DNA of 64,000 nucleotides from NCBI GenBank assembly GCA_035540375.1, contig DATLGO010000070.1, positions 2,416 through 66,415 of the forward strand. The letters are read 5' to 3'. Both the position numbers and the translations under genes were made by a program. Position 1 is the stretch's first letter. The number at the start of each line of letters is the position of its first letter. Origin of the DNA: Thermoplasmatota archaeon. Lineage in GTDB: Archaea; Thermoplasmatota; SW-10-69-26; JACQPN01; JAJPHT01. Positions 4,194-57,191 of the stretch are shown piece after piece. Below the pieces are notes generated by a model that worked only from the letters and a program-made list of their open reading frames with translations, did no database searches and had not been told where the DNA came from.

Positions 4194-4217
4194 CGCGACG
4201 TCGCCCCCGCAAAGGCC

Positions 4218-5105
4218 TTGACCCGCCCTTGCCATGGCCGCCCGATGCGTCGGGTCCCCCTCGCGCTCGCCCTCGCGCTCGCGCTCCTCGCGCCCGCGAC
4301 GGCGGGCTGCATCGCGCGCCTCGCGGAGGTCGCCGACACGAAGCCTCTCGCCGAGATCCCCGACGAGGAGCGCAGCCGCTACCCGCCTCCCGGGACGACC
4401 CCCACCGGGTCCCCGGGGAACCGGCCGCCCGTCGCCGCGATCGCGGTCGAGGGGCCCGCGGGCCCGCGCGGGCTCCCGCGCGACCTGTTCGCGCTCGATG
4501 CCACGGGGTCGGGCGACCGCGACGGGACGATCGCCCGGTACGACTGGCGGGTCCTCGAGGGGGACACGGTGGTCCTGAGCTCGGATCGCCCGCGCGTCGA
4601 GGGCGTCACGTTCCCCCAGCCCGGCGTTCGGGTGGTGCGTCTCACGGTCACGGACGACGACGGCGCGACCGCGACGGCGCAATCGACGCTCCACGTCGAC
4701 GCGCGGCACGACTACAAGGGCGAACCCGTGTGGCAACTCGTCACCGGCCCCTCCGCGAAATGGGCGAACCACACCGTGCCCTCGGGCCCCGACGGCCGCG
4801 CGCTCGCGCTCCGGCTCGCGCTCGGCGAGCGGCTCTCGGCCGCGGTCGAGGTGCTCGGCCCCGACGGCGCCGTCCTCGCGTCGGGCGAGACGGCCTCGGG
4901 CGCGAACGAGCTCGTGCTCCTCGTCGCCGCGCTCGCGGGGGGCGACCCCGTCGTCCGGTTGAAGATCACGCACGCGCCGGAGACGGTCGCGGGCACGCCG
5001 GTCCCCGTGCCGGCGGCGGAGCACCGCGGACGCTACGACCTCGCGGTGCGCGTCTACCAGGGCGCCTCGCCCGCGATCGAGGACCTCCGGCCGCCCGCGA
5101 AGTGA
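4218..5105 (+). CDS. Lipoprotein with a PKD domain
   Basis: Lipobox LAPATAGC after a basic N-region. PKD-like signature FALDATGSGDRDGTIARYDW...RLTVTDDDGATATA. Confidence 0.55.
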   Translation: MTRPCHGRPMRRVPLALALALALLAPATAGCIARLAEVADTKPLAEIPDEERSRYPPPGTTPTGSPGNRPPVAAIAVEGPAGPRGLPRDLFALDATGSGDRDGTIARYDWRVLEGDTVVLSSDRPRVEGVTFPQPGVRVVRLTVTDDDGATATAQSTLHVDARHDYKGEPVWQLVTGPSAKWANHTVPSGPDGRALALRLALGERLSAAVEVLGPDGAVLASGETASGANELVLLVAALAGGDPVVRLKITHAPETVAGTPVPVPAAEHRGRYDLAVRVYQGASPAIEDLRPPAK

Positions 5106-33848: not shown

Positions 33849-33917
33849 TCGGGGGATCGTCGACGGATCGGCAAAGGGTTCTTGATCTCCCGGCACGCCT
33901 TGGTGTCGAGGCTCGCC

Positions 33918-35648: not shown

Positions 35649-35731
35649 TCCCTCAACCACGCAGGACCCGACATAGCAGGGAAGAATACAAGGCGCCTCT
35701 CGCATCCGTACGGTCGAGGAGAGGCCCAGCC

Positions 35732-37558: not shown

Positions 37559-37620
37559 CCCGACGGGACTGCGATGGATAGAAGACGACACCCCCGCACT
37601 CACCCCACGGAGAGGGTTCC

Positions 37621-39435: not shown

Positions 39436-39542
39436 GGCGCGCCCGGCCCGGGCGCAGACCGTCCGAGCGGGGGGCGTCGGGCGACAGCGCGCCGGCGGTT
39501 TCTTGACCTGTCCGGTGCAAGCCGGCGGGAAGAGGCCCACCC

Positions 39543-41360: not shown

Positions 41361-41382
41361 GGCGCGACACCCGGCCGTCACC

Positions 41383-43134
41383 TTGATGCCCCCTCTCGCA
41401 CCCTCGACGCAGGGAGGCCTGCCGTTGCGCGCCATCGCGACCATCGTCCTCGTGGTCCTGATCCTCGCGAGCGTCCCCGCGACCGCGCTCGACCGCGTCC
41501 TCGACGTCGCGTACGAAATCGGGGAACCCGACGCCCTCGTCCACGAAGGGAGGGGTCAACATACATGCCTCGCGGCGGCGAGCTCCCTCGCGCTCAACGA
41601 TGCGCGTTGCCCCCTCGTCCCGACGGGCGGGACGGCGCCGGCGAATGGAGTCGTCGTCCTCGACAGCGTTTACCGATCGAGTGCCGGGCTCTCGAACCAG
41701 CGGGAGACAATCTCGGATCCCGAGGGACGTCTGCGGGAGCAACAGGACGAAGGCACCACCTCGGTGAGGGCGGACCCGCTCCCGATCGAGGTGCGGGTGC
41801 CGACGGGCCTCGCCGTCGGCGGCGACACGAACACGCGACGGGACTCGGGCGGCGATCTGCCCGATCTCATCCTTCCCGGCCTCGGCAAGTTCGAAGCCTG
41901 GTACGGATGGTGGAACGATCTCGACGGTGACGGCCTCCTCGAGTATCGCGACGAGCGGCAGGGCCAAGCCGTGGTCGCGCGCCCCGACAACGAATGGTCG
42001 ATCAAGAAAGGCGCGACGATCCTCGCCTGGGTCGAGCCCGGCGCGCACCCCGGCTACGCCGCCCACGACCGCCCCGGAAGCGCGAGCCCGGACTTCTACT
42101 ACAGCGTGAGCGGCATCACGTACAACTCGGTCGGCAACGGCCAGCACATCTTCCTCGGCGGATCCCTCCTCGGCGCGCTCACGGTCCTCACGGTGAACGA
42201 CGCGACGCTCGCGCCGAGCGAGTTCGGCCCCTACACGCCGGGGCCCGAATCGCGCGTCGACCTCGACCGCTACGTGGCCGTCCTCCCCGGGCCCCTGGAT
42301 GCGCTCTACCGAGGGACGGTGGGCCCCGACGTGGACGCCATGGGAAGCCCTTCCTCGGGAAGCCTCGTGGCGAACGGCGGTCGCGTTACGAACCCGCCCG
42401 ACGCAACGGGCACCGCGCTCGACGGTCCGCTCGCATTTGCCGCCGGGGCCGCGTACGGTCGATACGAGCACGAAACGGATTCCGACGCGGGTTCGACCGC
42501 AAGCGGGCGGCACGCGGACTTCGTCGCCGGCTACCGCGGCTGGATCGACCTCTTGCCGCGCTACGGTTACGCGTCCACGGGCGCTGCCGCCAACACGCAT
42601 GTGTTCCCCGGCGAGATGCCCGGGCGCGACGCCGACGGTCGGCTCGCGGCGCCGCCGGGTTTCGTCTCGTTCGAGGTTCGCACGGGCCTCTGGCGAGACC
42701 TCGACGCGGACGGTTGGATCGGCACGGCCTCCGCCGATCCCTACGAGGGCGGCCTGCGGCCTAACCCGGACGATTACGTGGAGACCCGGGGCGAGTTCTT
42801 CCCGCTCTTCGTGACGTCCCACCCGCCGAGATCGCAGCCGGTCTTCGCCATCACGCTCACGCCCGACGGGCCATGGGATGCCGTGATCGCGAACGGGGTC
42901 CGCATCGGCGGGTCCGAAACCATCACGCTGCTTGCGCGCGGCGTCGATCGGAATCCCGGCGTGTACCGGTCCGATTCCATCTTCATGCCGAGGGGAACGA
43001 TGAACGTCGCCTTCACGGCCTGCACCGAGACGCTCGGGCTCCGTTACGAGGATCCCGCGACGGGCCCCTCGGAGGCCGTGTTGCGGGATTGCGACCTCGT
43101 GGGGAATCTCGCCGTGTCGACGATTCCCGGATAG
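41383..43134 (+). CDS. Secreted protein, novel paralogous family, copy 5
   Basis: Divergent copy. The more likely start is the TTG at 41425, after AGGGAGG. Motifs include PGAHP, GRHADF, WRDLDADGWIG, DPYEGGLRP and DCDLVGNLA. Confidence 0.7.
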   Translation: MMPPLAPSTQGGLPLRAIATIVLVVLILASVPATALDRVLDVAYEIGEPDALVHEGRGQHTCLAAASSLALNDARCPLVPTGGTAPANGVVVLDSVYRSSAGLSNQRETISDPEGRLREQQDEGTTSVRADPLPIEVRVPTGLAVGGDTNTRRDSGGDLPDLILPGLGKFEAWYGWWNDLDGDGLLEYRDERQGQAVVARPDNEWSIKKGATILAWVEPGAHPGYAAHDRPGSASPDFYYSVSGITYNSVGNGQHIFLGGSLLGALTVLTVNDATLAPSEFGPYTPGPESRVDLDRYVAVLPGPLDALYRGTVGPDVDAMGSPSSGSLVANGGRVTNPPDATGTALDGPLAFAAGAAYGRYEHETDSDAGSTASGRHADFVAGYRGWIDLLPRYGYASTGAAANTHVFPGEMPGRDADGRLAAPPGFVSFEVRTGLWRDLDADGWIGTASADPYEGGLRPNPDDYVETRGEFFPLFVTSHPPRSQPVFAITLTPDGPWDAVIANGVRIGGSETITLLARGVDRNPGVYRSDSIFMPRGTMNVAFTACTETLGLRYEDPATGPSEAVLRDCDLVGNLAVSTIPG

Positions 43135-43138
43135 CTAT

Positions 43139-44887
43139 TTGGCCCATCGGACACCCTCCGCCCCAACCATGCGCGCCGTCTTCGTCCTCGCGCTCCTGCT
43201 TCTTGCGCCCGTTGCCGCCGAGTCCACCACGTTCGACGCCCGCCTCGAGATCGAGGAGCCGGGCGCGAACGCCCACGCGGCGCGCGGCCAGCGCACATGC
43301 CTCGCCGCCCCCGACGACCCCGCCTGCCCCGCCGTCCTCACGGGCCTCGCGCACCCGGCCCTCGGAGTGCTCGTCCTCGACGCCTTCGCCTGGACCTACG
43401 CGGGCGCGACGACTTTGCGGGACTACGCCGCCGAGCCGGGGCGCCCCGGCCAGGGGGGCCTCACGACGGCGGAGACGCGACGCCTGGGCATGAACCCGGC
43501 GCGCGAATCGCTCGGGATCCTGCCCGACGCGATCCTTCCCGGCGCCGGATCGTGGCGCGCGCTCCACGGGCACTGGAGCGACGACGACGGCGACCAGCTG
43601 ATCGAGGCGCGCTTCAACGGCTTCGCGCCCGTCGTGGGCAACGAATGGGCGCCCATCGGCGGCGCGGCCCGCGTGCACGTCTGGATCGAGCCGGGCAGCC
43701 ACCCCACGGTGACGACGCTCGACCGGCCCGACGCGACGAGCCCCGACCTCGTGCTCGACTGCGATCGCTGGACGCTCCTGTGCGATCCGCGCGGGGAGGA
43801 CGATTTCATCGTGGCGACGGACGGCTCGCTCCTCGGGACCGTCGAATCGGCGGCGGTCACGCGCGCCCTCCTCGCGCCGAGCGAGGGCCGTCCCTACACG
43901 ACCCGCGCGGATTCCCTCGTGGACCTCGACACCTACGCCGCGATCGCGCCCGGCCCCGTCGAGAGCCTGTACGCCGGCGTGGCGCGGCCCCTGCTGCTCT
44001 TCGTCGGGAGCCCGAGCTACGGCTCCGCGCTCTCGGACGGCGGACGCATCGGGCCGGTCCCCTTCGGCGGGACGGCGCTTGCCGGCCCCGCCGAGCCCGT
44101 CTACGAGGGCCTGTACGCGCCCTATCCGCGGGAATGGGCGCCGGGGTCCGGATCGACCGCGGCGGGCGAGCGCGAAAGCTACACCCTCCACTACGCGCCC
44201 TGGATCGACCTCCTCCCGAGCTGGGGCTACGGCGCCGTCGGCCTCACGAGTCCCCAGGGCGGCGCGGCCGGGCCCCCCACGCCGAAGCCGGGCGCGCTCC
44301 CGGGCCGCTCCGCGACGGGCGCGCAGGCGATGCTTCCCGGCCACCTCGCCTTCGAGCTGCGCACGGGCCTCTGGAAGGACCTCGACGGCGACGGCTTCGT
44401 CGGCCGGGCCGATCCGACGGACCCGTACGAAGGCGGATCGAAGCCGCTCGCGGACGATTACGCGAACGCCGCGGGCGAGTTCGCCCCGCGCGCCGTCGAC
44501 GAGCTGCTCGTCTCGACGTTCGCGCGCGTGGTGGTGACGCTTCGACCCGACCCGGACTGGGGCGCGGGCGTGCTCGTGAACTGCAACTACGCGCCGCTTA
44601 TCGTGAACGTCGGCGGATGGGCCGAATGCGCCCGCGACCCGTGGCTGTGCGCGTCGCCGACGACGGTCTGCGCGGTCGATCCCGCGGCGTGGCTCGTGAC
44701 GGGAACGCGGGAGATCCGCCTCGCGATGCGCCTCGACGGCGAGGCCGTCGCGCGCTCCGACGCCGTGCTGCTGCCGCGCGGCACGGACGGCTTCGCGGTC
44801 GAGGCCTGCGCGGGACCCTTCACGCTCTCGTGGGCGGACGAGCGCGCGACGGTCTCGGACTGCGACCGCATCGAACCCCTCGCCTGA
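43139..44887 (+). CDS. Secreted protein, novel paralogous family, copy 6
   Basis: Divergent copy. An alternative start MRAVFVLALLLL lies at 43169. Confidence 0.7.
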   Translation: MAHRTPSAPTMRAVFVLALLLLAPVAAESTTFDARLEIEEPGANAHAARGQRTCLAAPDDPACPAVLTGLAHPALGVLVLDAFAWTYAGATTLRDYAAEPGRPGQGGLTTAETRRLGMNPARESLGILPDAILPGAGSWRALHGHWSDDDGDQLIEARFNGFAPVVGNEWAPIGGAARVHVWIEPGSHPTVTTLDRPDATSPDLVLDCDRWTLLCDPRGEDDFIVATDGSLLGTVESAAVTRALLAPSEGRPYTTRADSLVDLDTYAAIAPGPVESLYAGVARPLLLFVGSPSYGSALSDGGRIGPVPFGGTALAGPAEPVYEGLYAPYPREWAPGSGSTAAGERESYTLHYAPWIDLLPSWGYGAVGLTSPQGGAAGPPTPKPGALPGRSATGAQAMLPGHLAFELRTGLWKDLDGDGFVGRADPTDPYEGGSKPLADDYANAAGEFAPRAVDELLVSTFARVVVTLRPDPDWGAGVLVNCNYAPLIVNVGGWAECARDPWLCASPTTVCAVDPAAWLVTGTREIRLAMRLDGEAVARSDAVLLPRGTDGFAVEACAGPFTLSWADERATVSDCDRIEPLA

Positions 44888-45032
44888 GGCAACCGTTCGG
44901 GCCAAAATCCACCGGCAAGATGACCTCGCCTCGGGCGCACCGAGTTTAAGGCGCGAGGGACCGTTCGACCCGCGCGCGACAGGCCGACGATACGTTGATC
45001 GCCCTCGGGGAAATGATCGATGGGTCTTCGCG

Positions 45033-46850
45033 ATGTCCGCGCCTTCCTCCCGTCCTTCCATCGGTGCTTTGCGCGCGGTGCCGGGCGACGGGACGCTCGA
45101 TCGGAAGATCCGCCCGCGCCGGGTCCTCGCGGCGGTCCTTCTCGTCGCGCTCACGGCGCCACTCGTCGCGGGCGCCCCCGTCGGGACCGAGCCGGCGTTC
45201 GAAGCCCGGGAGAACAACCGGGTATGGATCGACGGGGAAGGCCAGTGGAACTGCGTGCCCGAAGCGCTCGAGCACGTCGCGCGGGACGGTTGCCCCGTGC
45301 AGCCGACCGGCTCGGCGAGGCCCGCGCTCGGCGTCCGCATGCTCGACGACCATTACCTCACGTCCTTCGGCGTCGGACGTCCCTTCGAGAGCGCGCAAGA
45401 CCCCGCTTCAGGCCCCGACGCCGGCGCGGGGTCGAACCTGGAACGCTCGTCCCGCGGGTTCGTCCGCGATGTCGTCCTGCCGGGGGCGGGCACGTTCCGT
45501 GCCTGGTTCGGTTGGTGGCACGACGTCGACGACGACGAGGTTCTCGAGTACCGCGGAACGGGAGACGCCTTCGCGGACGGCAACGAGTGGGTTCCGATCC
45601 GTCGGCACCATCTCGTCTCCTACGTCGAGCCGGGAAGCCACCCCGGATTCGCGACCTTCGAAAGGCCGCAGGATTCCGAGCCGGATTTCGAGTACGACCC
45701 CGGTCTGACGCCTTACTACAGCGCGCGAACGCCGAGCGCCTATTTCGCGGGGGTCATCCTCTTCACGGACGGTTCCCTCGCCCGGACCCTCCAGGTCGCC
45801 ACCGTGACCGATCCGATCCTCGCGCCAAGCGGCGAGAACCGGCCCTGGACGCCGACCGAAGACTCGCTCGTGGACATCGACCTCTACGCGGCCGTGGCCC
45901 CGGGCCCCGTCGCGGAGGTCTTCGGCGTCGTGCTCGGCGACCTTGTCGTCTCGACGGGTTCGCCGAGCCTCGGCACCCTCGCGGAGGACGGTGGGCTGGG
46001 TCCCCGGCCGGCCCGGGACACGCCGCTCGAGGGGACCTTCGCCGATCCGCCCTACGGCGCGGCCGTGGGCGCCTTCTGGGCGCCCTATCCCCAGGAGTGG
46101 CGGCCCGGCGCCCGCTCCTCGAACGCGGGCCGCGGCGATGCGTACGCTCAGGCCTACACCGACTGGATCGACCTCATCCCGGGCTACGGATACGGCACCA
46201 CGGGCTTCCAATTCAGCGCATACACCGGCCAACCCGGCCCGCTCCCTGGGCGTTCCGCGACGGGGGGTCAAGCCATGGCGCCCGGCGCCCTCGCCTTCAC
46301 GCTGCGCGTCGGGGTCTGGCGGGACCTGAACCTCGACGGTTACGTCGGCGTGGCGAAACCCGGCGATCCCCACGACGGCGGGTCGGATCCGCGCGCCGAC
46401 GACTACGCGAGCCCGCGCGGAGAATATTTCGGAATCCCCGCCCGCACGCCTTCCGGCGACGTGCTCGATTACACGCGTCTCGTGCTGCGACCCTTCCCCG
46501 ATTGGGGCGCCGCCGGCGCATTCCTGTACTACCGCGGCCAACCCGACGTGATCGTCGAACCGAGCCGCGCGCCCCCGAATCCCGTCTGCTACTCGGCCAA
46601 CGGATGCCTGAACGATCCCGGCGCGTTCCACGTGACCGGGTCGCGACCGGTCGAGCTGAACGTGCGCCGCGACGTCTACGAGGCGGGGCTCTACCGCTCC
46701 GACCTCCTGATGCTGCCGCTCGGGACGTCCGGTTTCGAGATCGAGGCCTGCACCGACACGCTGCTCGTGACCGTTCCGTCGCATGCCGGCGAGGTTGTCG
46801 CCTCCGTTTGGGACTGCGACGTCATCGAGGCGTTCGACCCCGGGCCGTGA
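45033..46850 (+). CDS. Secreted protein, novel paralogous family, copy 7
   Basis: Divergent copy. Motifs include PGSHP, ILFTDGSL, WIDLIPGYGY, DPHDGGSDP, CTDTLL and WDCDVIEAF. Confidence 0.7.
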   Translation: MSAPSSRPSIGALRAVPGDGTLDRKIRPRRVLAAVLLVALTAPLVAGAPVGTEPAFEARENNRVWIDGEGQWNCVPEALEHVARDGCPVQPTGSARPALGVRMLDDHYLTSFGVGRPFESAQDPASGPDAGAGSNLERSSRGFVRDVVLPGAGTFRAWFGWWHDVDDDEVLEYRGTGDAFADGNEWVPIRRHHLVSYVEPGSHPGFATFERPQDSEPDFEYDPGLTPYYSARTPSAYFAGVILFTDGSLARTLQVATVTDPILAPSGENRPWTPTEDSLVDIDLYAAVAPGPVAEVFGVVLGDLVVSTGSPSLGTLAEDGGLGPRPARDTPLEGTFADPPYGAAVGAFWAPYPQEWRPGARSSNAGRGDAYAQAYTDWIDLIPGYGYGTTGFQFSAYTGQPGPLPGRSATGGQAMAPGALAFTLRVGVWRDLNLDGYVGVAKPGDPHDGGSDPRADDYASPRGEYFGIPARTPSGDVLDYTRLVLRPFPDWGAAGAFLYYRGQPDVIVEPSRAPPNPVCYSANGCLNDPGAFHVTGSRPVELNVRRDVYEAGLYRSDLLMLPLGTSGFEIEACTDTLLVTVPSHAGEVVASVWDCDVIEAFDPGP

Positions 46851-46906: not shown

Positions 46907-48007
46907 GTGGCCGACATCCTCACCGTCCTGGCCGTCCTCATCCTCGCCGCGATCATGATCCTCGCCCTCTCGGGCGTCCGGATCGTGCAGCCCTACGAGC
47001 AGGGTCTGCTCATCGTCCTCGGCCAGTTCCGCCGGAAGCTCAATCCCGGTTTCAACTGGGTGTACCCGCTCATCTCGCAGGTGGTGAAGCTCGACCTCCG
47101 CACGCAGGTGCTCGACGTGCCGCGGCAGGAGGTCATCACGAAGGACAACTCCCCGACGAACGTGGATGCGATCGTGTACATCCGCGTCATCTCGCCCGAC
47201 AAGGCGTTCTTCGAGGTCACGAACTACAAGCTCGCGACGATCGCGCTCGCGCAGACGACCCTCCGCAGCGTGATCGGCGACATGGAGCTGGACGAGATCC
47301 TGTACAACCGCGAGCGCATCAACTCGCGCCTGCGCGACATCCTCGACCACGCGACCGACGCGTGGGGCGTGCGCATCGAGGCGGTCGAGATCCGCGAGGT
47401 CGACCCCGTCGGGCCCGTCAAGGCCGCGATGGAGGAGCAGACCTCCGCCGAGCGGCAGCGTCGCGCGGCGATCCTGCGCGCGGACGGCGAGAAGCGCAGC
47501 GCGATTTTGACCGCGGAAGGCCAGAAGCGGGCCCGCATCCTCGCGGCCGAAGGCGTGCGGCAGGCGAAGATCCTCGAAGCCGAGGGTCAGCGACTCGCGC
47601 GCATCCTCGAGACGCAGGGCGAGGCGCAGTCGCTGCGCATCCTCGCGATGGGCGCCGCGCCCCTCGACCAGAAGTCGCTCACCGTGCTCTCCCTCGACGC
47701 GGTGAAGGCGCTCGGCAACGGGCAGGCGACGAAGATCGTGCTCCCGTTCGAGATCTCCACGCTCATGCAGGGCGTCGGCAAGTTCCTCGGAGCCGGCACG
47801 CAGGTTCCCCCGATGGAACCTTCGAAGCAGAAGGAGCTCGAGCAGCTCATCGGCCCGGCCGAGCGCGTGCTCGGCACCATTCCCGACCCCACGGAGCTCT
47901 CGAAGGAGCTCGCCGCGATCGAGAAGGAGATGGCGGACGAGGCCGCGAAGACCGAGGAGATCGCGCAACGCGCCAAGCCCACGAGCCCGCCCGCGGCCGC
48001 CGAATGA
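46907..48007 (+). CDS. SPFH/band-7 (stomatin/prohibitin-like) membrane protein
   Basis: N-terminal TM helix, SPFH domain (IVQPYEQGLLIVLGQF...), and a coiled-coil EA-rich C-terminus. GTG start. Confidence 0.8.
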   Translation: MADILTVLAVLILAAIMILALSGVRIVQPYEQGLLIVLGQFRRKLNPGFNWVYPLISQVVKLDLRTQVLDVPRQEVITKDNSPTNVDAIVYIRVISPDKAFFEVTNYKLATIALAQTTLRSVIGDMELDEILYNRERINSRLRDILDHATDAWGVRIEAVEIREVDPVGPVKAAMEEQTSAERQRRAAILRADGEKRSAILTAEGQKRARILAAEGVRQAKILEAEGQRLARILETQGEAQSLRILAMGAAPLDQKSLTVLSLDAVKALGNGQATKIVLPFEISTLMQGVGKFLGAGTQVPPMEPSKQKELEQLIGPAERVLGTIPDPTELSKELAAIEKEMADEAAKTEEIAQRAKPTSPPAAAE

Positions 48008-48099
48008 CACGCTCCGGGCGCGCGTGCAGGCGCGGGTCGTTCCACGCCGCGGTCGGCTAGAGAAGGCTTATCTACGACGTGTCCTCCTAAGCCGACGAC

Positions 48100-49116
48100 A
48101 TGGCCCAGGACCTCCTCGAGAGCGGGCTCCTTCTCATGGTCTTCGTGGGCCTCGGCCTCCTCGCCGCGGGCTTCTTCGTGAAGGATCCGCGCAAGCACCT
48201 GCTGCGCATCGCCGGGTGGGCCCTCTTCGCGATCTACTGGCCCTTCCAGGCGCCGCACTTCTTCAACGACGCGGACCCCGTGAACGGGTATTTCGCGCTC
48301 GCGGCGCCGCTCTTCCTCGGCTACATCGCGTGGCACGAATGGAAGTCCTACCAATGGAAGGAGGACCCGCACGCGATGCGTTGGCTCACGGGCACGAGCG
48401 TCGTCGCCGCGGCGAGCTACTTCGTCATCTACCGCATCCCCGAGGCGACGGAGGCGCTCATCCGCTTCACGGCCGGTCAAACGTCGTGGATGCTCGCGTT
48501 CCTCTTCGGCGTCGAGTCGAGCATCCAGCCCTCCATCTTCGAGGCGGGCTCGTGGGACGTCTTCCTCACGGGCGGCGGAACCGAAGAGTACGCGGTCACG
48601 ATCATCCTCGCGTGCACCGCGATCCAGAGCATCATGATCTTCGTCGGCGCGATCGCGAGCCTCGAGCGCTCGCCACGCCGCAACCGCCTCCTCGCGTACG
48701 CGATCACGGTCCCCGTGATCTACTTCCTGAACCTCTTCCGCAACTCGGGCATCGTCTTCGCCTACAAGGTGTGGGACTTCCCCGCCTGGTTCAAGGGCGG
48801 ATGGGACGCGATCGGTCAACCGATCTCGTGCCTCATGGGCACGTGCTTCCCCATCGGCGAGCTCGGCACGCAGGCGCGCTTCGAGTTCATGCACTCCGTG
48901 CTCGGGAAGGGCGGAAGCCTCGTCGCGCTCATCGTCATCGCCCTCGGCGTGTTCATGCTCCTGCCGGAGCTGCACAACAACATCCTCGACCTCTTCGATC
49001 TGAGGAAGCGCAACCGCAAGGGCTTCTACGATCCGCCGCCGCCGCCGGGCCCCGCCGACCCGCCCGCAAGCGCGCCGCCGGCCCCGCCCGCCGCCGCGAA
49101 ACCCGAGGAGGCCTGA
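48100..49116 (+). CDS. artA: Archaeosortase A-like transpeptidase (exosortase/archaeosortase family)
   Basis: Polytopic membrane protein. Cys172 in a TM segment (ILACTAIQ) and Arg214 (LFRNSG) fall at the positions of the H. volcanii ArtA catalytic Cys173/Arg214. Pro-rich C-terminal tail. Synteny with psd/pssA. Confidence 0.65.
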   Translation: MAQDLLESGLLLMVFVGLGLLAAGFFVKDPRKHLLRIAGWALFAIYWPFQAPHFFNDADPVNGYFALAAPLFLGYIAWHEWKSYQWKEDPHAMRWLTGTSVVAAASYFVIYRIPEATEALIRFTAGQTSWMLAFLFGVESSIQPSIFEAGSWDVFLTGGGTEEYAVTIILACTAIQSIMIFVGAIASLERSPRRNRLLAYAITVPVIYFLNLFRNSGIVFAYKVWDFPAWFKGGWDAIGQPISCLMGTCFPIGELGTQARFEFMHSVLGKGGSLVALIVIALGVFMLLPELHNNILDLFDLRKRNRKGFYDPPPPPGPADPPASAPPAPPAAAKPEEA

Positions 49117-49117
49117 C

Positions 49118-49747
49118 GTGGCGGCCGTCCGCTTCGCGCAAGGGTCCGCGTCGTGGCTCGCCGCGACGGGCCTCGGCGTCGTCGCGCTCCTCGCCCTCGC
49201 GCTCGCGACGGGCGACGGCGTCGTCGCCGCGCTCGCGCTCGCGGCGCTCGTGTTCCTGGGCTTCCTCCTGAACTTTTTCCGCGACCCCGACCGCGCGATC
49301 GCGGACGGCGTGTGCTCGCCCGCCGACGGCGTCGTCTCGTTCGTCGAGCCCGCCGAGGGCGGCGCCACCCGCGTGGCCATCTTCATGAATCCCTTCGACG
49401 TGCACGTGAACCGCGCCCCCGTCGCGGGCCGCATCGCGGCCGTCGACCACCGCGCGGGCGGCTTCGTGCCAGCCTTCAAGAAGGAGAGCGAGAGAAACGA
49501 GCGCGTGGAGTGGGTGATCGAGACGGCCGAGGGTCCCGTGAGGCTCCATCAGATCGCGGGCACGGTCGCGCGCCGCATCGTGCCCTACCTCGCGCCGGGC
49601 GCCGAGGTCGCGAAGGGCGACCGCATCGGCATGATCCGCCTCGGGAGCCGCGTCGACGTCTGGCTCCCCGCCGCGTACGAAGTGAAGGTCAAGGGAGGTG
49701 AACGCGTCTGGGCCGGAGCTACGACGCTCGCCATCTCACGAAAGTGA
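49118..49747 (+). CDS. psd: Archaetidylserine/phosphatidylserine decarboxylase-like protein (PssD type)
   Basis: About 209 aa. C-terminal pattern of the Psd family (GDRIGMIRLGSRVDVWLP). Confidence 0.65.
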   Translation: MAAVRFAQGSASWLAATGLGVVALLALALATGDGVVAALALAALVFLGFLLNFFRDPDRAIADGVCSPADGVVSFVEPAEGGATRVAIFMNPFDVHVNRAPVAGRIAAVDHRAGGFVPAFKKESERNERVEWVIETAEGPVRLHQIAGTVARRIVPYLAPGAEVAKGDRIGMIRLGSRVDVWLPAAYEVKVKGGERVWAGATTLAISRK

Positions 49748-50637
49748 GGCTCCGGCTGCGGAGCGATCACCTCCTCCGGGCCCGCGCGCGCCTCAACCGC
49801 TGGCGAAGCGTCGTCTCGCCCGCGGACGTCCTGACGCTCCTCAACGGAGCGTGCGGCTTCCTCGCGATCGCCGTGCTTGCGGGCACGGACGCGTGCACGA
49901 ACCCGGGCAACCCCACGTGCACGCCTTTCGACTCGCCGTTCTTCCCCGGCCTCCAGAACGCCTTCCCCGGCCTCCCGAGCGACCGCTTCCTCATCGCGGG
50001 CGCGCTCATCGTGCTCGGCCTCGTGTTCGACGCGACCGACGGCATGGTCGCCCGCCGCTTCGGCGGGTCCCGGCTCGGCGCGGACCTCGACACGCTCTCC
50101 GACACGATCACGTTCGTCGTGACGCCCGCCCTCATGATCCTCAAGTTCTACTCCAACCCCGCCTACATCGCGGACCCGGAGCCCTACGCGGCCGCCCTTG
50201 CCGCGAGCCTCGTGCTCGTGATGGGCATGCTGCGCCTTGCGCGCTTCAACGCGAACCCGACGGAGACGGACACGAAGACCTTCCAGGGCCTTCCCACGCC
50301 CTGGTGCGCGCTCACGGTCGTGCTCACCATCCTCATCGCGATGCCGACGCGCTTCGCGCTCCCCATCTTCGCGATCCTCGCGCTCCTCATGATGAGCAAC
50401 GTGGCGTACCCGAAGTCGAAGGGGGTCGTGAAGCACATCGCGGTCGCCCTCGTCCTTTCGGCCTTCGGGCTCGCGACCCTCCTCTTCTTCTTCCCCGCCG
50501 GGTCCGGCCCGGTCGTCCGGGCCGCGTTCATCCTCGCGGCCATCACCATCGCGCTGGCCCCCTTCTTCCTCAAGCGGACGAAGGTGGCCCCCGAGGCCGC
50601 CCCCGCCCCCGCCCTTCCGGGGACTCCGAAGCCCTGA
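49744..50637 (+). CDS. pssA: CDP-alcohol phosphatidyltransferase (archaetidylserine synthase-like)
   Basis: DATDGMVARRFGGSRLGADLDTLSD matches the CDP-OH phosphotransferase motif D(x)2DG(x)2AR...G(x)3D(x)3D. ATGA-type overlap with psd. Confidence 0.75.
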   Translation: MRLRLRSDHLLRARARLNRWRSVVSPADVLTLLNGACGFLAIAVLAGTDACTNPGNPTCTPFDSPFFPGLQNAFPGLPSDRFLIAGALIVLGLVFDATDGMVARRFGGSRLGADLDTLSDTITFVVTPALMILKFYSNPAYIADPEPYAAALAASLVLVMGMLRLARFNANPTETDTKTFQGLPTPWCALTVVLTILIAMPTRFALPIFAILALLMMSNVAYPKSKGVVKHIAVALVLSAFGLATLLFFFPAGSGPVVRAAFILAAITIALAPFFLKRTKVAPEAAPAPALPGTPKP

Positions 50638-50711
50638 CCCGGGAACGCCGCATCGATTTGTGGCAGATATTTAAAGAAAGACCTCGTTACGGTCGCCGCG
50701 GACCTCCCACT

Positions 50712-51260
50712 ATGCCCCAGGAACTCAAGATCGGCATCACGGGGCTTCCGAGCGTCGGCAAGACCCGCACGCTCCTCAAGATCGTCGAGAAGCTCGAGGC
50801 CAAGGACACGATCGTGGGCGGCATGGTCACGGAGAGCATCGACGAGGACGGGAAGCGCCTCGGGTTCCGGCTCGTGAACTGGCTCACGAAGGAAGAAGGC
50901 ATCCTCGCGCACGTCGACTTCGAGAGCGCGAAGGTCAAGGTCGGCAAGTTCGGCGTCGACCTCAACGCGCTCGAATCCCTCGGCGTCCCCGCGATCGAGC
51001 AGGCCATCCGCGAGGCCGAGGTCATCGTCATCGACGAGGTCGGCAAGATGGAGATGGAGTCCGACCGCTTCTGCGCCGCGGTGAAGGCCGCCCTCGACAC
51101 GCCGAAGCCCATGATCATGACGCTTCACAAGAAGTCGCGCAACCCGCTCCTGCAGGACATCCGCCGGCGCGACGACATTCGCATCCTCGAGGTCACGAAG
51201 ATCAACCGGAACCTCCTCCCCTACAAGATCGAGAAGCTCCTCGAAGGGGAAGTCATCTAG
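50712..51260 (+). CDS. THEP1-type nucleoside triphosphatase (MJ1559 family)
   Basis: P-loop GITGLPSVGKT and Walker B VIVIDEVG. About 182 aa. The family is characteristic of archaea. Confidence 0.8.
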   Translation: MPQELKIGITGLPSVGKTRTLLKIVEKLEAKDTIVGGMVTESIDEDGKRLGFRLVNWLTKEEGILAHVDFESAKVKVGKFGVDLNALESLGVPAIEQAIREAEVIVIDEVGKMEMESDRFCAAVKAALDTPKPMIMTLHKKSRNPLLQDIRRRDDIRILEVTKINRNLLPYKIEKLLEGEVI

Positions 51261-51305
51261 GACCCGGCCGGAAGGCCCAACGCCCGGGCCGCGCCTTTTC
51301 TTCGC

Positions 51306-51590
51306 GTGGAACGCCACGTGCTCGCCATCCATGCCCTCGCCGAGGGCGCGAACGAAGACGCCGTCAAGGAGACGCTCGGCCGCGTCGCGGAAGCGGCCGC
51401 CGACCGGGGCTGGCGCGCGATCGAAACCTTCTACTCGCTCGAACGCGGCCGCGCCTACACGTATGCGGAGACGGACACGGCCGACCGCGTACGCGACACG
51501 CTCGACGACCTCGGGCTCGCGGGCGTCGAGGTGCTCGAGGCGGAGCGCGTGTTCACCGAGCTTCTGCACCGGCCCCGGCGGTCGCGGTGA
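51306..51590 (+). CDS. Small hypothetical protein
   Basis: 94-aa ORF with a GTG start and non-repetitive composition. No domain recognised. Confidence 0.3.
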   Translation: MERHVLAIHALAEGANEDAVKETLGRVAEAAADRGWRAIETFYSLERGRAYTYAETDTADRVRDTLDDLGLAGVEVLEAERVFTELLHRPRRSR

Positions 51591-51864
51591 GTTTCGCATG
51601 GCCCGCCGCAATTTTGCGATCCCCGTGGTTTGTGCCCCATGAGCGGATTAGCATTCAACGCCTTCGGCCGCGCGGCCCCGGATTGTCCACCCTGCGCCAG
51701 GCGGAGCTTGCCGCGCGACGTTCCTCTTGCGCACGAGCGGATGCCCCCGATGCGTGACATCCCCAGCCGTCTCGCAGCCGCGCTTCGATCGGCCCATCGC
51801 CGCGACGCGCCGGGGAAAACGATAAGGGGCGACCCGCCGCCTGCACGGCGGGGAGGTCGACCTC

Positions 51865-53625
51865 TTGCTTGCACGCCGCCTGGGACAGCTCATCGTCCTT
51901 GCCCTCCTCATCCTCGCCCCCGCGGGGACCGCCTCGGTACTCAATCGGGTGACCTACGAAGCCGAGGAGGACGACCGCCTGCTCCTCGATGCCGCTGGGC
52001 AACGCAACTGCGTCCTCGCGGCAATTCATCAAGAGGGCACCGACGCATGCCCCTTCGAACGAACGCCCCAGCCACGGCCGGCCATGGGCATCCTGCTCCT
52101 CGACGACGTCTACCGCCAGACGGGCGTGCCCGAGGACGGTCCCGGCACCGCCCGGCGTGACGCGGAATTCCTCGCGTCGCGGCCCACCTCCGGAAGCGTG
52201 CCCACCTCCTTCGTCAACGACGTGTCCTCCGGAGCGAGCTATCACCGCGCCAGCGGCGGAGACCTCCCGGATATCATTGCGCCCGGACACGGCCGTTTCC
52301 ATGCGTATTTCGGCTGGTGGCTCGACGTCAACGGCAACGGCGTCATCGAGCGGAGCGACCTTGCTCCGGCGAACGGCCAAACTTCGGATCCCGAGCACGA
52401 GTGGGCCCTGAAACCAGACGCCGCCATCTTCTCTTACATCGATCCCGGCCCGCATCCGTTCGTCACCGAATTCAAGCGGCCCGACAAGGGGAGCCCGGAC
52501 GTCGCCTATTCGTCGGGAGCCCATTGGTATACCGCGGGATCCGTCGTGCCCGTCGTCTTCGTGGATGGCTCGCTCATCCGACCCATGACCGTCACGACCG
52601 TCACGGACCCCCTCCTCTCGCCCAGCAGCGACGGCATCAACACGTACCCCTATACGCCGGGCGAGTCCTCCATGATCGACATCGACCGCTACGCGGCGAT
52701 CGCCCCGGGACCCCTCTCCGACGTCTACGCGACCGCCGCAGGCCCTTTCTTGGACACCGTGGGGAGCCCGAGCCTCGGGCTCTGTCCCAACGCCTGTCAG
52801 ATCACGCCTACCGGCGCCCGGGGCACGCCCCTCGCGGGGCCGGTCGCAACCGCCGTGAGCCTCGCGTACGGACGCGCCGAGCACGAGACGGCTCCCGGAA
52901 GCGGCGCGTCGGGCGAGGGTCGCGGTCTCGAAGCCCGCGATGCATTCATCGGCTGGGCCGACCTCGTCCCGCGCCAGCGCCAAGTCCCCCTCGCCGGCAC
53001 CGGCCGGACGGTCGCAAGCGACGGCGAACCGGTGGGCGTCGGAACCGACGGCTCCCAGAGCATGGGACCCGGCATGTTCACCCTCGAGATGTGGACCGGC
53101 GTCTGGAAGGACCTGGGCGGTGACGGCCACGTCGGATGGCCGCAGGAACCCGGCGACCCCTACGAAGGGGGCGCCCGGCCCCGGCCCGACAATTACCTCG
53201 AGAGCGGCGGCGAATTCATTGGCGCCTACCCCACCCATATCGAAGGGACCTCGACGAGCGAGTTCAAGGTTCTCGCGATTCCCGACACGGATTGGGGACC
53301 CCTCGGTGTCACCATCGTCAACGTCGGCCTCCAGTCGCGCGACCCCGGCAACGTCATCGCCTGCCCCCCGCCCCTTGCCAGCACGTGCATGACCCCCATC
53401 GTGGGATCCTCGCCCGTCACGCTCCTGATGCGGCGCGATCCGTCCCTCGGGGCGGGGCACTATTCGACGCAGGACGCGCTCCTCATGCCGCTCGGCTCGC
53501 CGGGCTTCTCCGTGTGCTCACCGAGGATGAAGGTCTCGTTCGCGCAATCGAACGTGCTGATCGAGGAGGACGTGTGGGACTGCGACCATCTTTCGCAATG
53601 GGCCGGATTCTCGACGGCGTCGTGA
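51865..53625 (+). CDS. Secreted protein, novel paralogous family, copy 8 (dispersed)
   Basis: Signal peptide LGQLIVLALLILAPAGTASV. Motifs include NCVLAA...CP, LPDIIAPGHG, PGPHP, FVDGSL, WKDLGGDGHVG, DPYEGGARP and WDCDHLSQW. Confidence 0.7.
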   Translation: MLARRLGQLIVLALLILAPAGTASVLNRVTYEAEEDDRLLLDAAGQRNCVLAAIHQEGTDACPFERTPQPRPAMGILLLDDVYRQTGVPEDGPGTARRDAEFLASRPTSGSVPTSFVNDVSSGASYHRASGGDLPDIIAPGHGRFHAYFGWWLDVNGNGVIERSDLAPANGQTSDPEHEWALKPDAAIFSYIDPGPHPFVTEFKRPDKGSPDVAYSSGAHWYTAGSVVPVVFVDGSLIRPMTVTTVTDPLLSPSSDGINTYPYTPGESSMIDIDRYAAIAPGPLSDVYATAAGPFLDTVGSPSLGLCPNACQITPTGARGTPLAGPVATAVSLAYGRAEHETAPGSGASGEGRGLEARDAFIGWADLVPRQRQVPLAGTGRTVASDGEPVGVGTDGSQSMGPGMFTLEMWTGVWKDLGGDGHVGWPQEPGDPYEGGARPRPDNYLESGGEFIGAYPTHIEGTSTSEFKVLAIPDTDWGPLGVTIVNVGLQSRDPGNVIACPPPLASTCMTPIVGSSPVTLLMRRDPSLGAGHYSTQDALLMPLGSPGFSVCSPRMKVSFAQSNVLIEEDVWDCDHLSQWAGFSTAS

Positions 53626-53731
53626 GCGGCCCAAGGCGATCCCGTCGCCGCCCGGGCGGCGGCCTTCAGCGACCACGCCGACGTGGCAAGCGCGCGGCTC
53701 GGAAGAGCGCCGAACGCGAACGGGAATAGAA

Positions 53732-53803
53732 TGCCGGGGACGGGGTTCGAACCCGCGACCTAAGGATTATGAGTCCTTCGCTCTACCAGCTGAGCCACCC
53801 CGG
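53732..53803 (-). tRNA. tRNA-Met (anticodon CAT; elongator type with a G1-C72 pair), no encoded CCA
   Basis: Read as GCCGGGG-TG-GCTCAGCTGGTAGAGC-G-AAGGA-CTCATAA-TCCTT-AGGTC-GCGGGTTCGAACCCCGT-CCCCGGC-A. Cloverleaf with a 7-bp acceptor stem, 5-bp anticodon stem and a TTCGAAC T-loop. Confidence 0.85.
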
Positions 53804-53858
53804 CGGGGGGTACGCCGTGAAAGCGGCTCGCCGTATTTAACCGTAAGGGGGCCGAAAA

Positions 53859-54362
53859 TCAGGCTTTCACGAGCACGTGGAAGACCTGCGGCTCGGTCCA
53901 GCCCGAGTCCATGAGCGTGCCGTCGAGCGCCATGAGGCGCCACGTGACCTTCGACCCCGGCGCGAACGGCTGGGTCGAGGCGGGCGACCACGACTCGCCC
54001 TCGATGTTGTGGATGACGTTGCGCGTCTCCAGGGTTCCGAGGCGCGACACGATCTCGAGGCTGTACACGACCGGGCCCGTCGCCGCGCCCGCGTCCCACC
54101 GGAACGTCGGCGTGAGCGAGGACGTCGTCGCGTTCGCCGCAGGGTCGCGCGGGACCGGCTTCTCGGGCGGGACCGGCGCGGGCTCCTCGGAGACGTTCTC
54201 CACGAGCGTCCCGTGATCGAGCGGCTCGACCTCGTTGCCGTTCTCGTCCACGAGGATCCACGCGTCCGGCGGGGCGACGTAGATCTTGTAGGCGGCGCCC
54301 GCCGACCCTCCGAGGGTCACCGCGATCACCGTCAAGACCGTCCACTTCAAGACGCCGCGCAT
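53859..54362 (-). CDS. Secreted hypothetical protein (167 aa)
   Basis: Signal peptide MRGVLKWTVLTVIAVTLGGSAGAA. Forms the C-terminal end of the otherwise artefactual 53859..57467 ORF. Divergent from aglB. Confidence 0.5.
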   Translation of the reverse strand: MRGVLKWTVLTVIAVTLGGSAGAAYKIYVAPPDAWILVDENGNEVEPLDHGTLVENVSEEPAPVPPEKPVPRDPAANATTSSLTPTFRWDAGAATGPVVYSLEIVSRLGTLETRNVIHNIEGESWSPASTQPFAPGSKVTWRLMALDGTLMDSGWTEPQVFHVLVKA

Positions 54363-54390
54363 CACGAGGGGAACCCCACCCTCGGCGGCT

Positions 54391-54398
54391 GATATAGG
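54391..54398 (-). promoter_or_regulatory. TATA-like element (CCTATATC) about 32 nt upstream of the 54362 start
   Basis: AT-rich octamer in a GC-rich divergent intergenic region. Confidence 0.35.
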
Positions 54399-54450
54399 TT
54401 GTTGTACGCCGAAGCCCCCCCGGGCGACGAGGCCAGCGGAATCCAGAACC

Positions 54451-54457
54451 TTAAAAA
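54451..54457 (+). promoter_or_regulatory. TATA-like element (TTAAAAA) about 29 nt upstream of the aglB start, with a purine-rich BRE-like stretch just upstream
   Basis: The only A/T heptamer in the 120-nt intergenic region. Spacing is that of an archaeal promoter producing a leaderless mRNA. Confidence 0.4.
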
Positions 54458-54482
54458 CCGAGGCCCGCCATCGGCCGCCCGT

Positions 54483-57191
54483 ATGGACCGGCGGCGTCTC
54501 CTCAAGACCAGTCTCCTCGTCGCGGAGGTGGCCCTCGTCCTCGCCGTCGCGTGGTTCATGTGGGACGTCCGCATGGCCTCGTTCCCGGCCCTGTTCCTCG
54601 ACAACGGCGGGAGCTACTACATCGGCACCGATCCGTACTACCACCTGCGCGAAGCGCTCTACAGCGCTGAGCACTTCCCCGCCTCGCTGCGCTTCGACCC
54701 CTACACGAACTACCCCGCCGGCACCGGCACGGGCCAGTTCGGAACCCTCTTCGACCTCGGCGCCGCCGCCCTCGCCATCGTCGCGGCGGGCTTCCGGACG
54801 CCCGACCGCCACACCGTGGAGCTCGTCGTCGGCTGGTACCCCGCGCTCCTCGGCGCCCTCATCGCGATCCCCACGTACCTCGTCGCGCGCCGCATCATGG
54901 GCCGCGTCGCCGCCGCCTTCGCCATCCTCCTCCTCGCGCTCTTCCCCGGCGAGTTCCTCATCCGGTCGCTCGCGGGCTACGCGGACCATCACGTCGCGGA
55001 AGCACTCTTCAGCACGCTCGCCGTCCTCGGGTGGCTCGTCGCCCACGCCGCCGCCGAACGTCACCGCGCCGACCTCCGCGCGCTCGCGCGCGACCCGCGA
55101 ACCCTCGCGAAGCCGACGGGCGCCGCGCTCCTCGGCGGCGTCGCGCTCGCGCTCTACTTCCACGTCTGGCCGCCCGCGGTCCTCTTCGTCGCGATCCTCG
55201 GCCTCGCGATCGCCATCCAGGCCGCGATCCACCACCACCGCGGCGAAACCCTCGCGCCCCTCGCCTTCGCGAGCACCGTCTTCTTCGCGACCGCCTTCGT
55301 CCTCACCGCGCCCCTCACGGAGGCGACCACGAGCTTCGCCCCGAGCGCCTACAGCCTCCTCCAGCCCACGTTCCTCCTCCTCGCCGCCGTCGCGGGCCCC
55401 GCGCTCTGGTTCCTGAGCGAAGCCCTCCGCGCCCGCGACGCGCCGAAGCCTGCATTCCCCGCCGGCGTCGCGGCCCTCGCCCTGCTCCCCGTCGTCGCCG
55501 CGATGGTCCTGAGCCCGACGCAGCTCTGGCCCGTCCTCAAGTGGAGCCTCGGATGGGTCACGCCGTTCGGCGCGACCGACCGCACCCTCACGATCGCCGA
55601 AGCGCAACCCACGTGCCCGGGCGAAATCTGGCTCGACTGCGCCGGCATGGCCTCGAGCTACGGCCTCTTCATCCTCATCGCGACCCTCGGCGCCGTCATG
55701 CTCGTCGGCCGCGTCATCCGCGCGCCCCGCCACGCGGACATCGTGCTCCTCGTCTGGAGCCTCACGACGTTCTTCGCCGTCACCGCGCAGGTCCGCTTCC
55801 AGTACTACTTCGCGATCACCGTCGCCCTCCTCAGCGCGTACTTCCTCCACGCCGCGCTCGAACTCACCGGCTTCAACGCCGCCCTCGAGCGCGCCATCCA
55901 CGGCAACCCCGCCCACGAGGAGGCCAAACGCGGCCAAGGCCGACGCACGCGCACGGCGACGAAAAGCGCCGAAGCCCTCACAGCCGCGCGCGCCCTGCCC
56001 ATCGCCGTCGCCATCCTCCTCGTCCTCCCCGGCAACATCCTCCTCAACAAGGACAGCGACGGCCGCCTCGCCGACCACTGCGGATCCCGCGTCCAATACC
56101 GCCCCAGCTACGCGATCGGCCACTGCATCGGCGTCGACGGCGACGTCCAGGTCTGGACGCGCGCCCTCGCATGGATGCGCGACCACACCGCCGACCCCGG
56201 CGTCAGCCTCTACACGAAACCCGAGGGTAACCACCCCGGCGACTACGGCGTCATCAGCTGGTGGGATTACGGCCACTGGACCCAGCTCATCGCCGAACGC
56301 CCCCCCGTCACCAACAACTTCCAGCAAGGCGCCCCCCTCGCGAGCCTCGTCTTCACGAGCCCCAACGAACGCGAAGCCAACGAACGCCTCGACGCATGGA
56401 CCGACCGCCACGGCGCGAACCGCGTCCGCTACCTCCTCGTGAGCGACGAGGACGTCGGCGGCAAGTACAACCCCATCACCGTCTGGGCCGACCGCGGCCT
56501 CGAACGCGGCACCCGCGCCTACACCATCGACGGCATCCCCTCCCCCCAACAGCTCCCCCTCATCGACCGCACGACCTTCCTCCAGAAGCTCTACCTCGAA
56601 GACGGACGCGACTACCACACGTGGCGCCTCGTCTACGAATACCCCCGCCTCAGCCAGATCCACACATTCCTCAACGTCCAGACGAACGGCTTCGGCAGTC
56701 TCAGCCAGGACGCGGGCCCCCTCCTCGGCAACCTCACCCCCACCCCGAGCCACGATCCCGACTGGATCTCCGTCCAACGGGGATCCAACGGCCAACCCGC
56801 CTTCGCCGTCTACGACCGCTGGTTCGCGGCCAAGCTCAAGATCTACGAACGCGTCGAAGGCGCGCGCCTCCACGGCCTCGCCGACCCCGGCGAAACCATC
56901 ACCGCCGCCATCCCCCTCGTCGCCAGGCAGGAACCCGGCGAAGCCCGCGCCTTCACGTGGATGGCGAGCACCACGGCCGGCCCCGACGGCACCTGGAACC
57001 TCACCGTCCCCTACGCGAGCCACGACCCCGTCCCCGCGGAAGACGGCGGCACCGACACGCGCGTCCACGCCACCGACCACTACACTCTCTGGACCGGCAC
57101 CGCGGACAACCCCCGCCTCGTCGCCACACCCATCCCGGTCAGCGACCGCGACACGCGGGACGGCAACGCGATCCGCGTCGACTTCGTGTGA
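54483..57191 (+). CDS. aglB: Oligosaccharyltransferase AglB (STT3 family)
   Basis: About 13 N-terminal TM helices and the WWDYGHW catalytic motif, followed downstream by a DxxK-like stretch (DEDVGGKYNPI). 902 aa from the ATG at 54483. Confidence 0.85.
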   Translation: MDRRRLLKTSLLVAEVALVLAVAWFMWDVRMASFPALFLDNGGSYYIGTDPYYHLREALYSAEHFPASLRFDPYTNYPAGTGTGQFGTLFDLGAAALAIVAAGFRTPDRHTVELVVGWYPALLGALIAIPTYLVARRIMGRVAAAFAILLLALFPGEFLIRSLAGYADHHVAEALFSTLAVLGWLVAHAAAERHRADLRALARDPRTLAKPTGAALLGGVALALYFHVWPPAVLFVAILGLAIAIQAAIHHHRGETLAPLAFASTVFFATAFVLTAPLTEATTSFAPSAYSLLQPTFLLLAAVAGPALWFLSEALRARDAPKPAFPAGVAALALLPVVAAMVLSPTQLWPVLKWSLGWVTPFGATDRTLTIAEAQPTCPGEIWLDCAGMASSYGLFILIATLGAVMLVGRVIRAPRHADIVLLVWSLTTFFAVTAQVRFQYYFAITVALLSAYFLHAALELTGFNAALERAIHGNPAHEEAKRGQGRRTRTATKSAEALTAARALPIAVAILLVLPGNILLNKDSDGRLADHCGSRVQYRPSYAIGHCIGVDGDVQVWTRALAWMRDHTADPGVSLYTKPEGNHPGDYGVISWWDYGHWTQLIAERPPVTNNFQQGAPLASLVFTSPNEREANERLDAWTDRHGANRVRYLLVSDEDVGGKYNPITVWADRGLERGTRAYTIDGIPSPQQLPLIDRTTFLQKLYLEDGRDYHTWRLVYEYPRLSQIHTFLNVQTNGFGSLSQDAGPLLGNLTPTPSHDPDWISVQRGSNGQPAFAVYDRWFAAKLKIYERVEGARLHGLADPGETITAAIPLVARQEPGEARAFTWMASTTAGPDGTWNLTVPYASHDPVPAEDGGTDTRVHATDHYTLWTGTADNPRLVATPIPVSDRDTRDGNAIRVDFV

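Follow-up and report, generated by a model that had tools for sequence, protein, structure and literature searches.

A packed artA-pssD-pssA operon in a Thermoplasmatota archaeon, a probable module that processes surface proteins at the C-terminus and anchors them to lipid

The DNA described here is a stretch of 64,000 nucleotides from a Thermoplasmatota archaeon (assembly GCA_035540375.1, contig DATLGO010000070.1, positions 2,416 to 66,415), referred to as the window. The interval 46907-57191 of the window contains artA, the gene for an archaeosortase A, together with pssD and pssA, two genes for putative enzymes of archaetidylethanolamine synthesis, and several further genes (Table 1). The window has a GC content of about 70%. 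The gene set of the interval was settled with a codon-position GC filter and the list of open reading frames (ORFs) and is unambiguous, and the same gene calls are found in the ENA assembly of the identical contig. The genes for the SPFH protein, ArtA, PssD, PssA, the THEP1-type NTPase, tRNA-Met and AglB, and the eighth member of a secreted paralog family (paralog 8), all lie where the first-pass annotation of this DNA had placed them.

The genes artA, pssD and pssA are closely packed. The artA stop codon TGA occupies 49114-49116 and the GTG start of pssD lies at 49118, which leaves a gap of 1 nt, and a GTGA overlap at 49744-49747 joins pssD and pssA. The first-pass annotation had described start/stop overlaps at both junctions, which is correct for pssD-pssA and not for artA-pssD. 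A spacer of 92 nt lies between the SPFH gene and artA. The 75-nt spacer before the THEP1 ATG (50712) holds an AT-rich box, atatttaaag, which is conspicuous at 70% GC. Because of the packing of the junctions and the AT-rich box in this spacer, the transcription unit is most likely artA-pssD-pssA (48100-50637), and THEP1 probably forms a unit of its own, with a separate promoter.

For the product of the first gene, ArtA is far ahead of all other families. The protein scores 166.9 bits on TIGR04125, and the next classes are ArtH with 23.6 and XrtF with 20.4 bits. The exosortase/archaeosortase signature TIGR04178 spans residues 166-289. The protein is 100% identical to the NCBI entry "archaeosortase A [Candidatus Thermoplasmatota archaeon]", and is thus already public under this name, so that the result for the locus is mostly confirmatory. 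It is predicted to be a polytopic membrane cysteine transpeptidase with a Pro-rich C-terminal tail. Cys172 (in ACTAIQ), Arg214 (in NLFRN), and His265 are invariant in an alignment of 16 sequences (A1) with 32-60% identity. ArtA of Haloferax volcanii requires Cys173, Arg214, and Arg253 (PMC9263693). These residues were mapped through haloarchaeal ArtA genes on PLSDB replicons and not through the H. volcanii sequence itself. The PGAP-annotated ArtA of Salinirubellus (locus L083) has Cys174, Arg215, and Arg254, with the same spacing as the three H. volcanii residues, and in alignment A3 the window protein has its Cys172 and Arg214 opposite Salinirubellus Cys174 and Arg215. The catalytic Cys and Arg named in the first-pass annotation are therefore present on alignment.

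An insertion of about 35 residues (residues ~222-259, window 48760-48880) lies between Arg214 and His265 of this ArtA and comprises Cys244 and Cys249. It is shared in part by the closest homologue (P0002) only, and most ArtA sequences have no such insertion.

PssD has two N-terminal transmembrane (TM) helices. Its pyruvoyl-forming site Gly176-Ser177 is conserved, as are Asp70 and His96, and the corresponding G-S-R, D, and H occur in 63-66 of 66 homologues. The PssA-like protein keeps the motif D99-G100-x2-A103-R104-x7-G112-x3-D116-x3-D120. Its best NCBIfam models are archaetidylserine synthases, namely NF038087 (108.4 bits, cutoff 240), TIGR04217 (91.3, cutoff 200), and NF038086 (71, cutoff 200). 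Because of these best matches and the pairing with a phosphatidylserine-type decarboxylase, the protein is predicted to be an archaetidylserine synthase with serine as its presumed substrate. The family scores, the conserved residues, and the synteny agree that artA, packed with a phosphatidylserine decarboxylase (PSD) homologue and a CDP-alcohol phosphatidyltransferase, represents the ArtA/PssA/PssD system, as the first-pass annotation had proposed.

Conservation of the operon was followed in related genomes. One genome per GTDB species was scanned with the ArtA alignment, which gave 389 relatives, and the best 80 loci were kept (numbered with the prefix L). All of these best 80 artA loci belong to Thermoplasmatota, including Poseidoniia (marine groups II and III, MGII/III). 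Neighbours were counted with profile searches of six-frame ORFs in the 66 loci that have at least 2 kb 3' of artA. A pssD gene lies within 600 nt of artA on the same strand in 57 of these loci, and pssA lies within 1.6 kb in 58. Both genes are located 3' of artA in 55 loci, and neither is found in six. The artA-pssD-pssA arrangement spans genomes of 30-74% GC and persists down to 31% ArtA identity. In 27 of the 66 loci, all of the Poseidoniia type (L023, L034, and 25 others among L023-L074, Poseidoniia/MGIII), ArtA and PssD are encoded in a single ORF. Two of these fusions were verified from ATG to stop (Table 1), and both of their halves score above the curated cutoffs, with 143-156 bits on TIGR04125 and ~193 bits on NF003685. 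The pssA gene follows directly 3' of the fused artA-pssD with a start/stop overlap. The retention of the linkage over such divergence, together with the gene fusion, lies well beyond chance. Judged by gene order, the conserved core is artA-pssD-pssA only, often followed by THEP1. The searchable literature, whose coverage is incomplete and leaves novelty unproven, yielded nothing on archaeosortase in Thermoplasmatota, MGII or Poseidoniales, nor on an ArtA-PssD fusion.

Three loci, L006 (JAJPHT010000020.1), L050, and L076, are labelled Proteobacteria, Neomarinimicrobiota or 'bacterium', yet have a Thermoplasmatota-type artA, which is fused with pssD in L050. These bins are probably mislabelled or contaminated.

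Table 1. Features of the interval 46907-57191, the secreted paralogs of the window, and selected genes at related loci (positions in the window, or in the locus where one is named).
Feature	Position	Strand	Description
SPFH/Band 7 membrane-scaffold protein	46907-48007	+	366 aa, N-terminal TM helix; PF01145 132 bits
artA, archaeosortase A	48100-49116	+	338 aa; TIGR04125 166.9 bits (cutoff 75); TIGR04178 59.8 (cutoff 23)
pssD, archaetidylserine/phosphatidylserine decarboxylase homologue	49118-49747	+	209 aa; PF02666 137 bits; NF003685 203.6 (cutoff 183)
pssA-like CDP-alcohol phosphatidyltransferase	49744-50637	+	297 aa, ~7 TM helices; PF01066 40.4 (cutoff 22)
THEP1-type NTPase	50712-51260	+	182 aa; NF010248 193 (cutoff 156); PF03266 171.6
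orf94	51306-51590	+	94-aa ORF; no family match
Paralog 8, secreted family	51865-53625	+	end-to-end alignment with the 7 upstream paralogs
tRNA-Met (CAT)	53732-53804	-	ARAGORN; unrelated housekeeping gene within the interval
ORF between tRNA-Met and aglB	53859-54371	-	170 aa; from the ORF list; one N-terminal hydrophobic segment (TM anchor)
aglB, archaeal oligosaccharyltransferase	54399-57191	+	TIGR04154 575.2 (cutoff 450); PF02516, PF22627, PF18079
Secreted paralogs, 8 in window	33882-46850 (seven in tandem) and 51865-53625	+ (paralog 8)	~570-605 aa
Fused artA-pssD, Poseidoniia	L023 9998-11743		581 aa, ATG to stop
Fused artA-pssD, Poseidoniia	L034 9872-11527		551 aa, ATG to stop
~2200-aa tail proteins, Poseidoniia	L034 12319-18921, L023 12535-19164, L036 12204-18881, others	-	directly after fused artA-pssD and pssA

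In H. volcanii, deletion of hvpssA or hvpssD blocks both the cleavage and the lipid labelling that depend on ArtA, and it is proposed that archaetidylethanolamine resolves the Cys173 thioester, possibly within an ArtA/PssA/PssD complex (PMC7157517). The window contains the same three enzyme families as ArtA of H. volcanii and its HvPssA and HvPssD proteins, ArtA retains its catalytic Cys and Arg, and there is likewise an AglB from the ArtA-associated subfamily. The window locus corresponds to the known ArtA/PssA/PssD system, probably with its own supply line of archaetidylethanolamine. It is quite likely that the three-gene operon is a self-contained module that processes secreted surface proteins at the C-terminus and anchors them to lipid.

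For such a module, the chemistry of the lipid, the mechanism of transpeptidation, and the substrates are modelled on the enzyme families and on H. volcanii. As proposed for that organism, the route would lead from CDP-archaeol through archaetidylserine to archaetidylethanolamine, which would be the acceptor in ArtA transpeptidation. PssA would form archaetidylserine from CDP-archaeol and serine, and PssD, a pyruvoyl enzyme (Ser177), would convert it to archaetidylethanolamine. ArtA would read a C-terminal tripartite signal on exported proteins, composed of a small P-G/A/S-F/L motif followed by a TM helix and a basic tail, and would cleave it through a Cys172 thioester. The amine of the ethanolamine would then resolve the thioester, leaving the protein joined to the lipid by an amide bond. 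Both the close packing of the genes and the Poseidoniia ArtA-PssD fusion suggest that synthesis of the lipid donor takes place beside, or in complex with, the sortase.

The juxtaposition of artA and pssA was seen in Methanosarcina and other methanogens (Haft et al. 2012, cited in PMC7157517), and Abdul-Halim et al. 2020 added pssD to it (PMC7157517). In the Methanosarcina cluster, which is known here from citation only, artA is likewise grouped with pssA and pssD, and this grouping is the basis of the functional hypothesis there. The window operon differs in its phylum, Thermoplasmatota, in the order artA-pssD-pssA, whose junctions are a gap of 1 nt and an overlap of 4 nt, and in the fusion found in Poseidoniia. 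The first-pass annotation had credited the linkage to haloarchaea. This attribution is incorrect, as the linkage is documented in Methanosarcina, the haloarchaeal genes are dispersed, and the two haloarchaeal artA loci examined have neither pssA nor pssD adjoining artA. In contrast, the window genes form one packed operon.

The resemblance to other sorting systems is partial. Rhombosortase/GlyGly-CTERM and exosortase/PEP-CTERM systems also have a C-terminal motif-TM-basic signal that is cut by a polytopic membrane enzyme. Rhombosortase substrates are reported to be attached to a glycerophosphoethanolamine-containing moiety (cited in PMC7157517), and exosortases have the TIGR04178 signature domain in common with ArtA. 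However, rhombosortase is not homologous to ArtA, and exosortase systems are bacterial and usually linked to exopolysaccharide loci, not to pssA and pssD. A Cys/Arg transpeptidation with a thioester and an amine nucleophile, analogous to Sortase A, has been proposed for ArtA (PMC9263693, PMC7157517). Sortase A of Gram-positive bacteria has no kinship to ArtA in sequence or fold, and differs in its acceptor, lipid II, and its signal, LPXTG.

Several observations count against the operon being an anchoring module of this kind. The third critical residue of ArtA, Arg253 in H. volcanii and Arg254 in Salinirubellus, is replaced in the window by Ser266, directly after the invariant His265. PssD reaches 180.7 bits against a cutoff of 240 on NF038088, the model for PssD of the haloarchaeal protein-sorting system, and the PssA-like protein falls under all NCBIfam cutoffs, including that of the sorting-system model (71 vs 200). 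A P[GAS][FL]-hydrophobic-basic C-terminal tail is absent from all reading frames of the 64 kb, and ten such tails from relatives, compared with the PGF-CTERM model TIGR04126 as whole proteins and as isolated 40-aa tails, all stay below the cutoff, including a literal PGF tail. The genomes behind the synteny counts are related, and the loci counted are not independent events. The amide linkage to ethanolamine is still a model even in H. volcanii (PMC7157517). As to the third residue, a second haloarchaeal ArtA, that of Natronorubrum (L082), has His-Asn and not Asp-Arg at this site, and because of this the third site is either Asp-Arg or His-x, with Arg not a family-wide feature.

The tail scan of all frames agrees with the first-pass annotation, which had seen no PGF-CTERM-type substrate in the window. 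TM-plus-basic tails in the 64 kb comprise none beyond the last helices of transporters. The genes for the substrates of the window ArtA most likely lie on other contigs of the genome. Relatives have candidate substrates beside the module. A Poseidoniia surface protein of ~2200 aa is convergent to pssA and ends with 'SLLPGPSF(I/L)S...YRRK', and the corresponding ~2200-aa protein of high-GC MGII has the tail 'GLPAPSLL...RRRR'. Another Poseidoniia protein, ~9-10 kb upstream, has the tail 'TPSFA(V/L)G...LRREEE'. The tails of high-GC relatives contain 'PAFG' (L015, L017), 'PGLG' (L018), and 'PGLE' (L076), and that of L055 contains the literal 'PGFE'. Some of the tail-bearing proteins match "choice-of-anchor T" or S-layer-like families. 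The Poseidoniia LLPGPSF tail has no match to any NCBIfam sorting-signal model and may be an undescribed PGF-CTERM variant. Because even the literal PGF tail fails, TIGR04126 is not informative for the Thermoplasmatota lineage. By these tails the lineage appears to use a tripartite signal, for which PGF-CTERM may or may not be the right name.

These tails bring in the possibility that the window ArtA belongs to a Thermoplasmatota-specific specificity class, which would act by the same mechanism on a variant signal, PSF, PAF or PGL in place of PGF, and for which 'PGF-CTERM-specific' would be the wrong label. The tails LLPGPSF, TPSFA, PAFG, and PGLG beside artA in relatives favor such a class, as do the failure of all ten tails at the TIGR04126 cutoff and the identity of only 23-27% between the window ArtA and haloarchaeal ArtA. 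The failure of the literal PGF tail of L055 suggests instead that weak, short hidden Markov models may be the cause. A separate specificity class is a tentative proposal with somewhat less than an even chance. It refines the anchoring module described above and does not exclude it.

A second alternative is that pssD and pssA are general genes of archaetidylethanolamine synthesis. Their adjacency to artA would then stem from ancestral gene order or from membership of one envelope regulon, and ArtA would either transfer to another acceptor or act by cleavage alone. In line with this, PssD and PssA fall under the sorting-system cutoffs and score better on the generic PSD and archaetidylserine synthase models, and the haloarchaeal genes cooperate although they are dispersed. 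The occurrence of ArtA and PssD as one polypeptide in 27 Poseidoniia loci speaks against it, as does the adjacency kept down to 31% ArtA identity and over 30-74% GC. Moreover, in H. volcanii ArtA cleavage itself needs PssA and PssD (PMC7157517). A purely general lipid role is unlikely, and the module with its own lipid donor remains the preferred explanation.

The genes around the operon are less constant. Only close relatives have a same-strand SPFH gene 5' of artA (L005, L006, and L007, plus L015 at a distance of 3 kb). In two of 80 loci, AglB is encoded no further than 10 kb from artA. The AglB protein contains the WWDYG motif as 'SWWDYGHW' in its translation, the true start of its gene is probably the ATG at about 54483, and it falls in the subfamily that NCBIfam calls 'archaeosortase A system-associated' (TIGR04154). 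It is tied to the module by subfamily membership and not by conserved position, and lies outside the operon. AglB probably modifies, by N-glycosylation, the same surface proteins as ArtA. A comparison of the paralogs, orf94, and AglB with the 80 artA loci (tblastn, phmmer) found no conserved linkage. The 170-aa ORF is divergent from aglB and has no match in a Pfam scan.

Of 55 related loci, 20 have a same-strand THEP1 gene downstream of artA at a distance of up to 4 kb. THEP1 (PF03266) is found behind artA-pssD-pssA in many Thermoplasmata lineages (30-72% GC) and not in Poseidoniia. It is a recurrent neighbour and a candidate, still unproven, for membership of the module, which may reflect either function or inherited gene order.

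The secreted paralogs flank the operon on both sides. Paralog 8 aligns end to end with the seven others at 34-38% identity. Their common features are a signal peptide, conserved Cys pairs, and the motifs GSPSxG, DxDGDGxVG and, at the C-terminus, DCD. Neither Pfam nor NCBIfam has a match to the family, and a profile search of 1.84 billion protein representatives found only 146 members, none of them annotated. All full-length members terminate a few residues past the DCD/DVD motif, and a C-terminal TM segment is present in none of the 146 representatives. This bears out the first-pass annotation, which had described the paralogs as lacking a C-terminal TM helix. Hydropathy profiles show that in most window paralogs the N-terminal segment alone is hydrophobic, and several family members have lipobox-like 'AGC' N-termini. 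An AlphaFold2 model built on the alignment of the eight paralogs has a mean predicted local distance difference test (pLDDT) score of 44, too low for a fold search. Members of the family occur within 10 kb of artA in none of the 80 related loci. The paralogs were considered as ArtA substrates and are judged unlikely to be such, as no member contains a C-terminal anchor. The suggestion that they carry another ArtA signal finds no support in these tails.

A PKD-domain protein at 4194-5105 of the window has the lipobox-like N-terminal sequence 'LLAPATAGC'. This points to N-terminal lipoprotein anchoring in this organism as well.

The first-pass annotation had grouped the whole interval 46907-57191 into one surface-biogenesis cluster. 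SPFH is found in this position only in a few close relatives, AglB is linked in two of 80 loci, and the paralogs in none. Because these genes are not conserved neighbours, the 10-kb cluster is not one unit, and is better described as a 2.5-kb operon, often with THEP1, among unrelated neighbours. A TM helix is part of every known archaeosortase/exosortase signal. No TM segment past the signal peptide, internal or C-terminal, is found in the 146 family representatives, the AT-rich promoter-like box lies between pssA and THEP1, and the tRNA and the opposite-strand ORF break the interval. A co-regulated island, in which the secreted paralogs would be local ArtA substrates with a non-PGF signal such as the C-terminal DCD motif, is thus highly improbable, despite the eight paralogs that flank the operon, the ArtA-associated subfamily of AglB, the recurrence of THEP1, and the ability of H. 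volcanii ArtA to process signals that are not C-terminal (PMC9263693). A coupled ArtA-PssD(-PssA) anchoring machine with the variant signal P-G/A/S-F/L, possibly with THEP1 as a fourth member and in its extreme form acting on the eight tail-less paralogs, is very doubtful as a whole.

The idea that ArtA attaches surface proteins to archaetidylethanolamine supplied on site by PssA and PssD was previously based on the genetics of a single haloarchaeon with dispersed genes and on Methanosarcina synteny. Conservation of the operon across Thermoplasmatota now adds a third large lineage, to which the abundant marine groups II and III belong. The locus adds to this system its phylum-wide conservation, the ArtA-PssD fusion, and the variant tails beside the module in Poseidoniia. 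At the genomic level, the fusion lends independent support to the proposal that ArtA and PssD form a complex. The cassettes are compact and in Poseidoniia adjoin a putative giant substrate, and could thus be used in heterologous hosts to test the lipid-anchoring chemistry of unculturable organisms.

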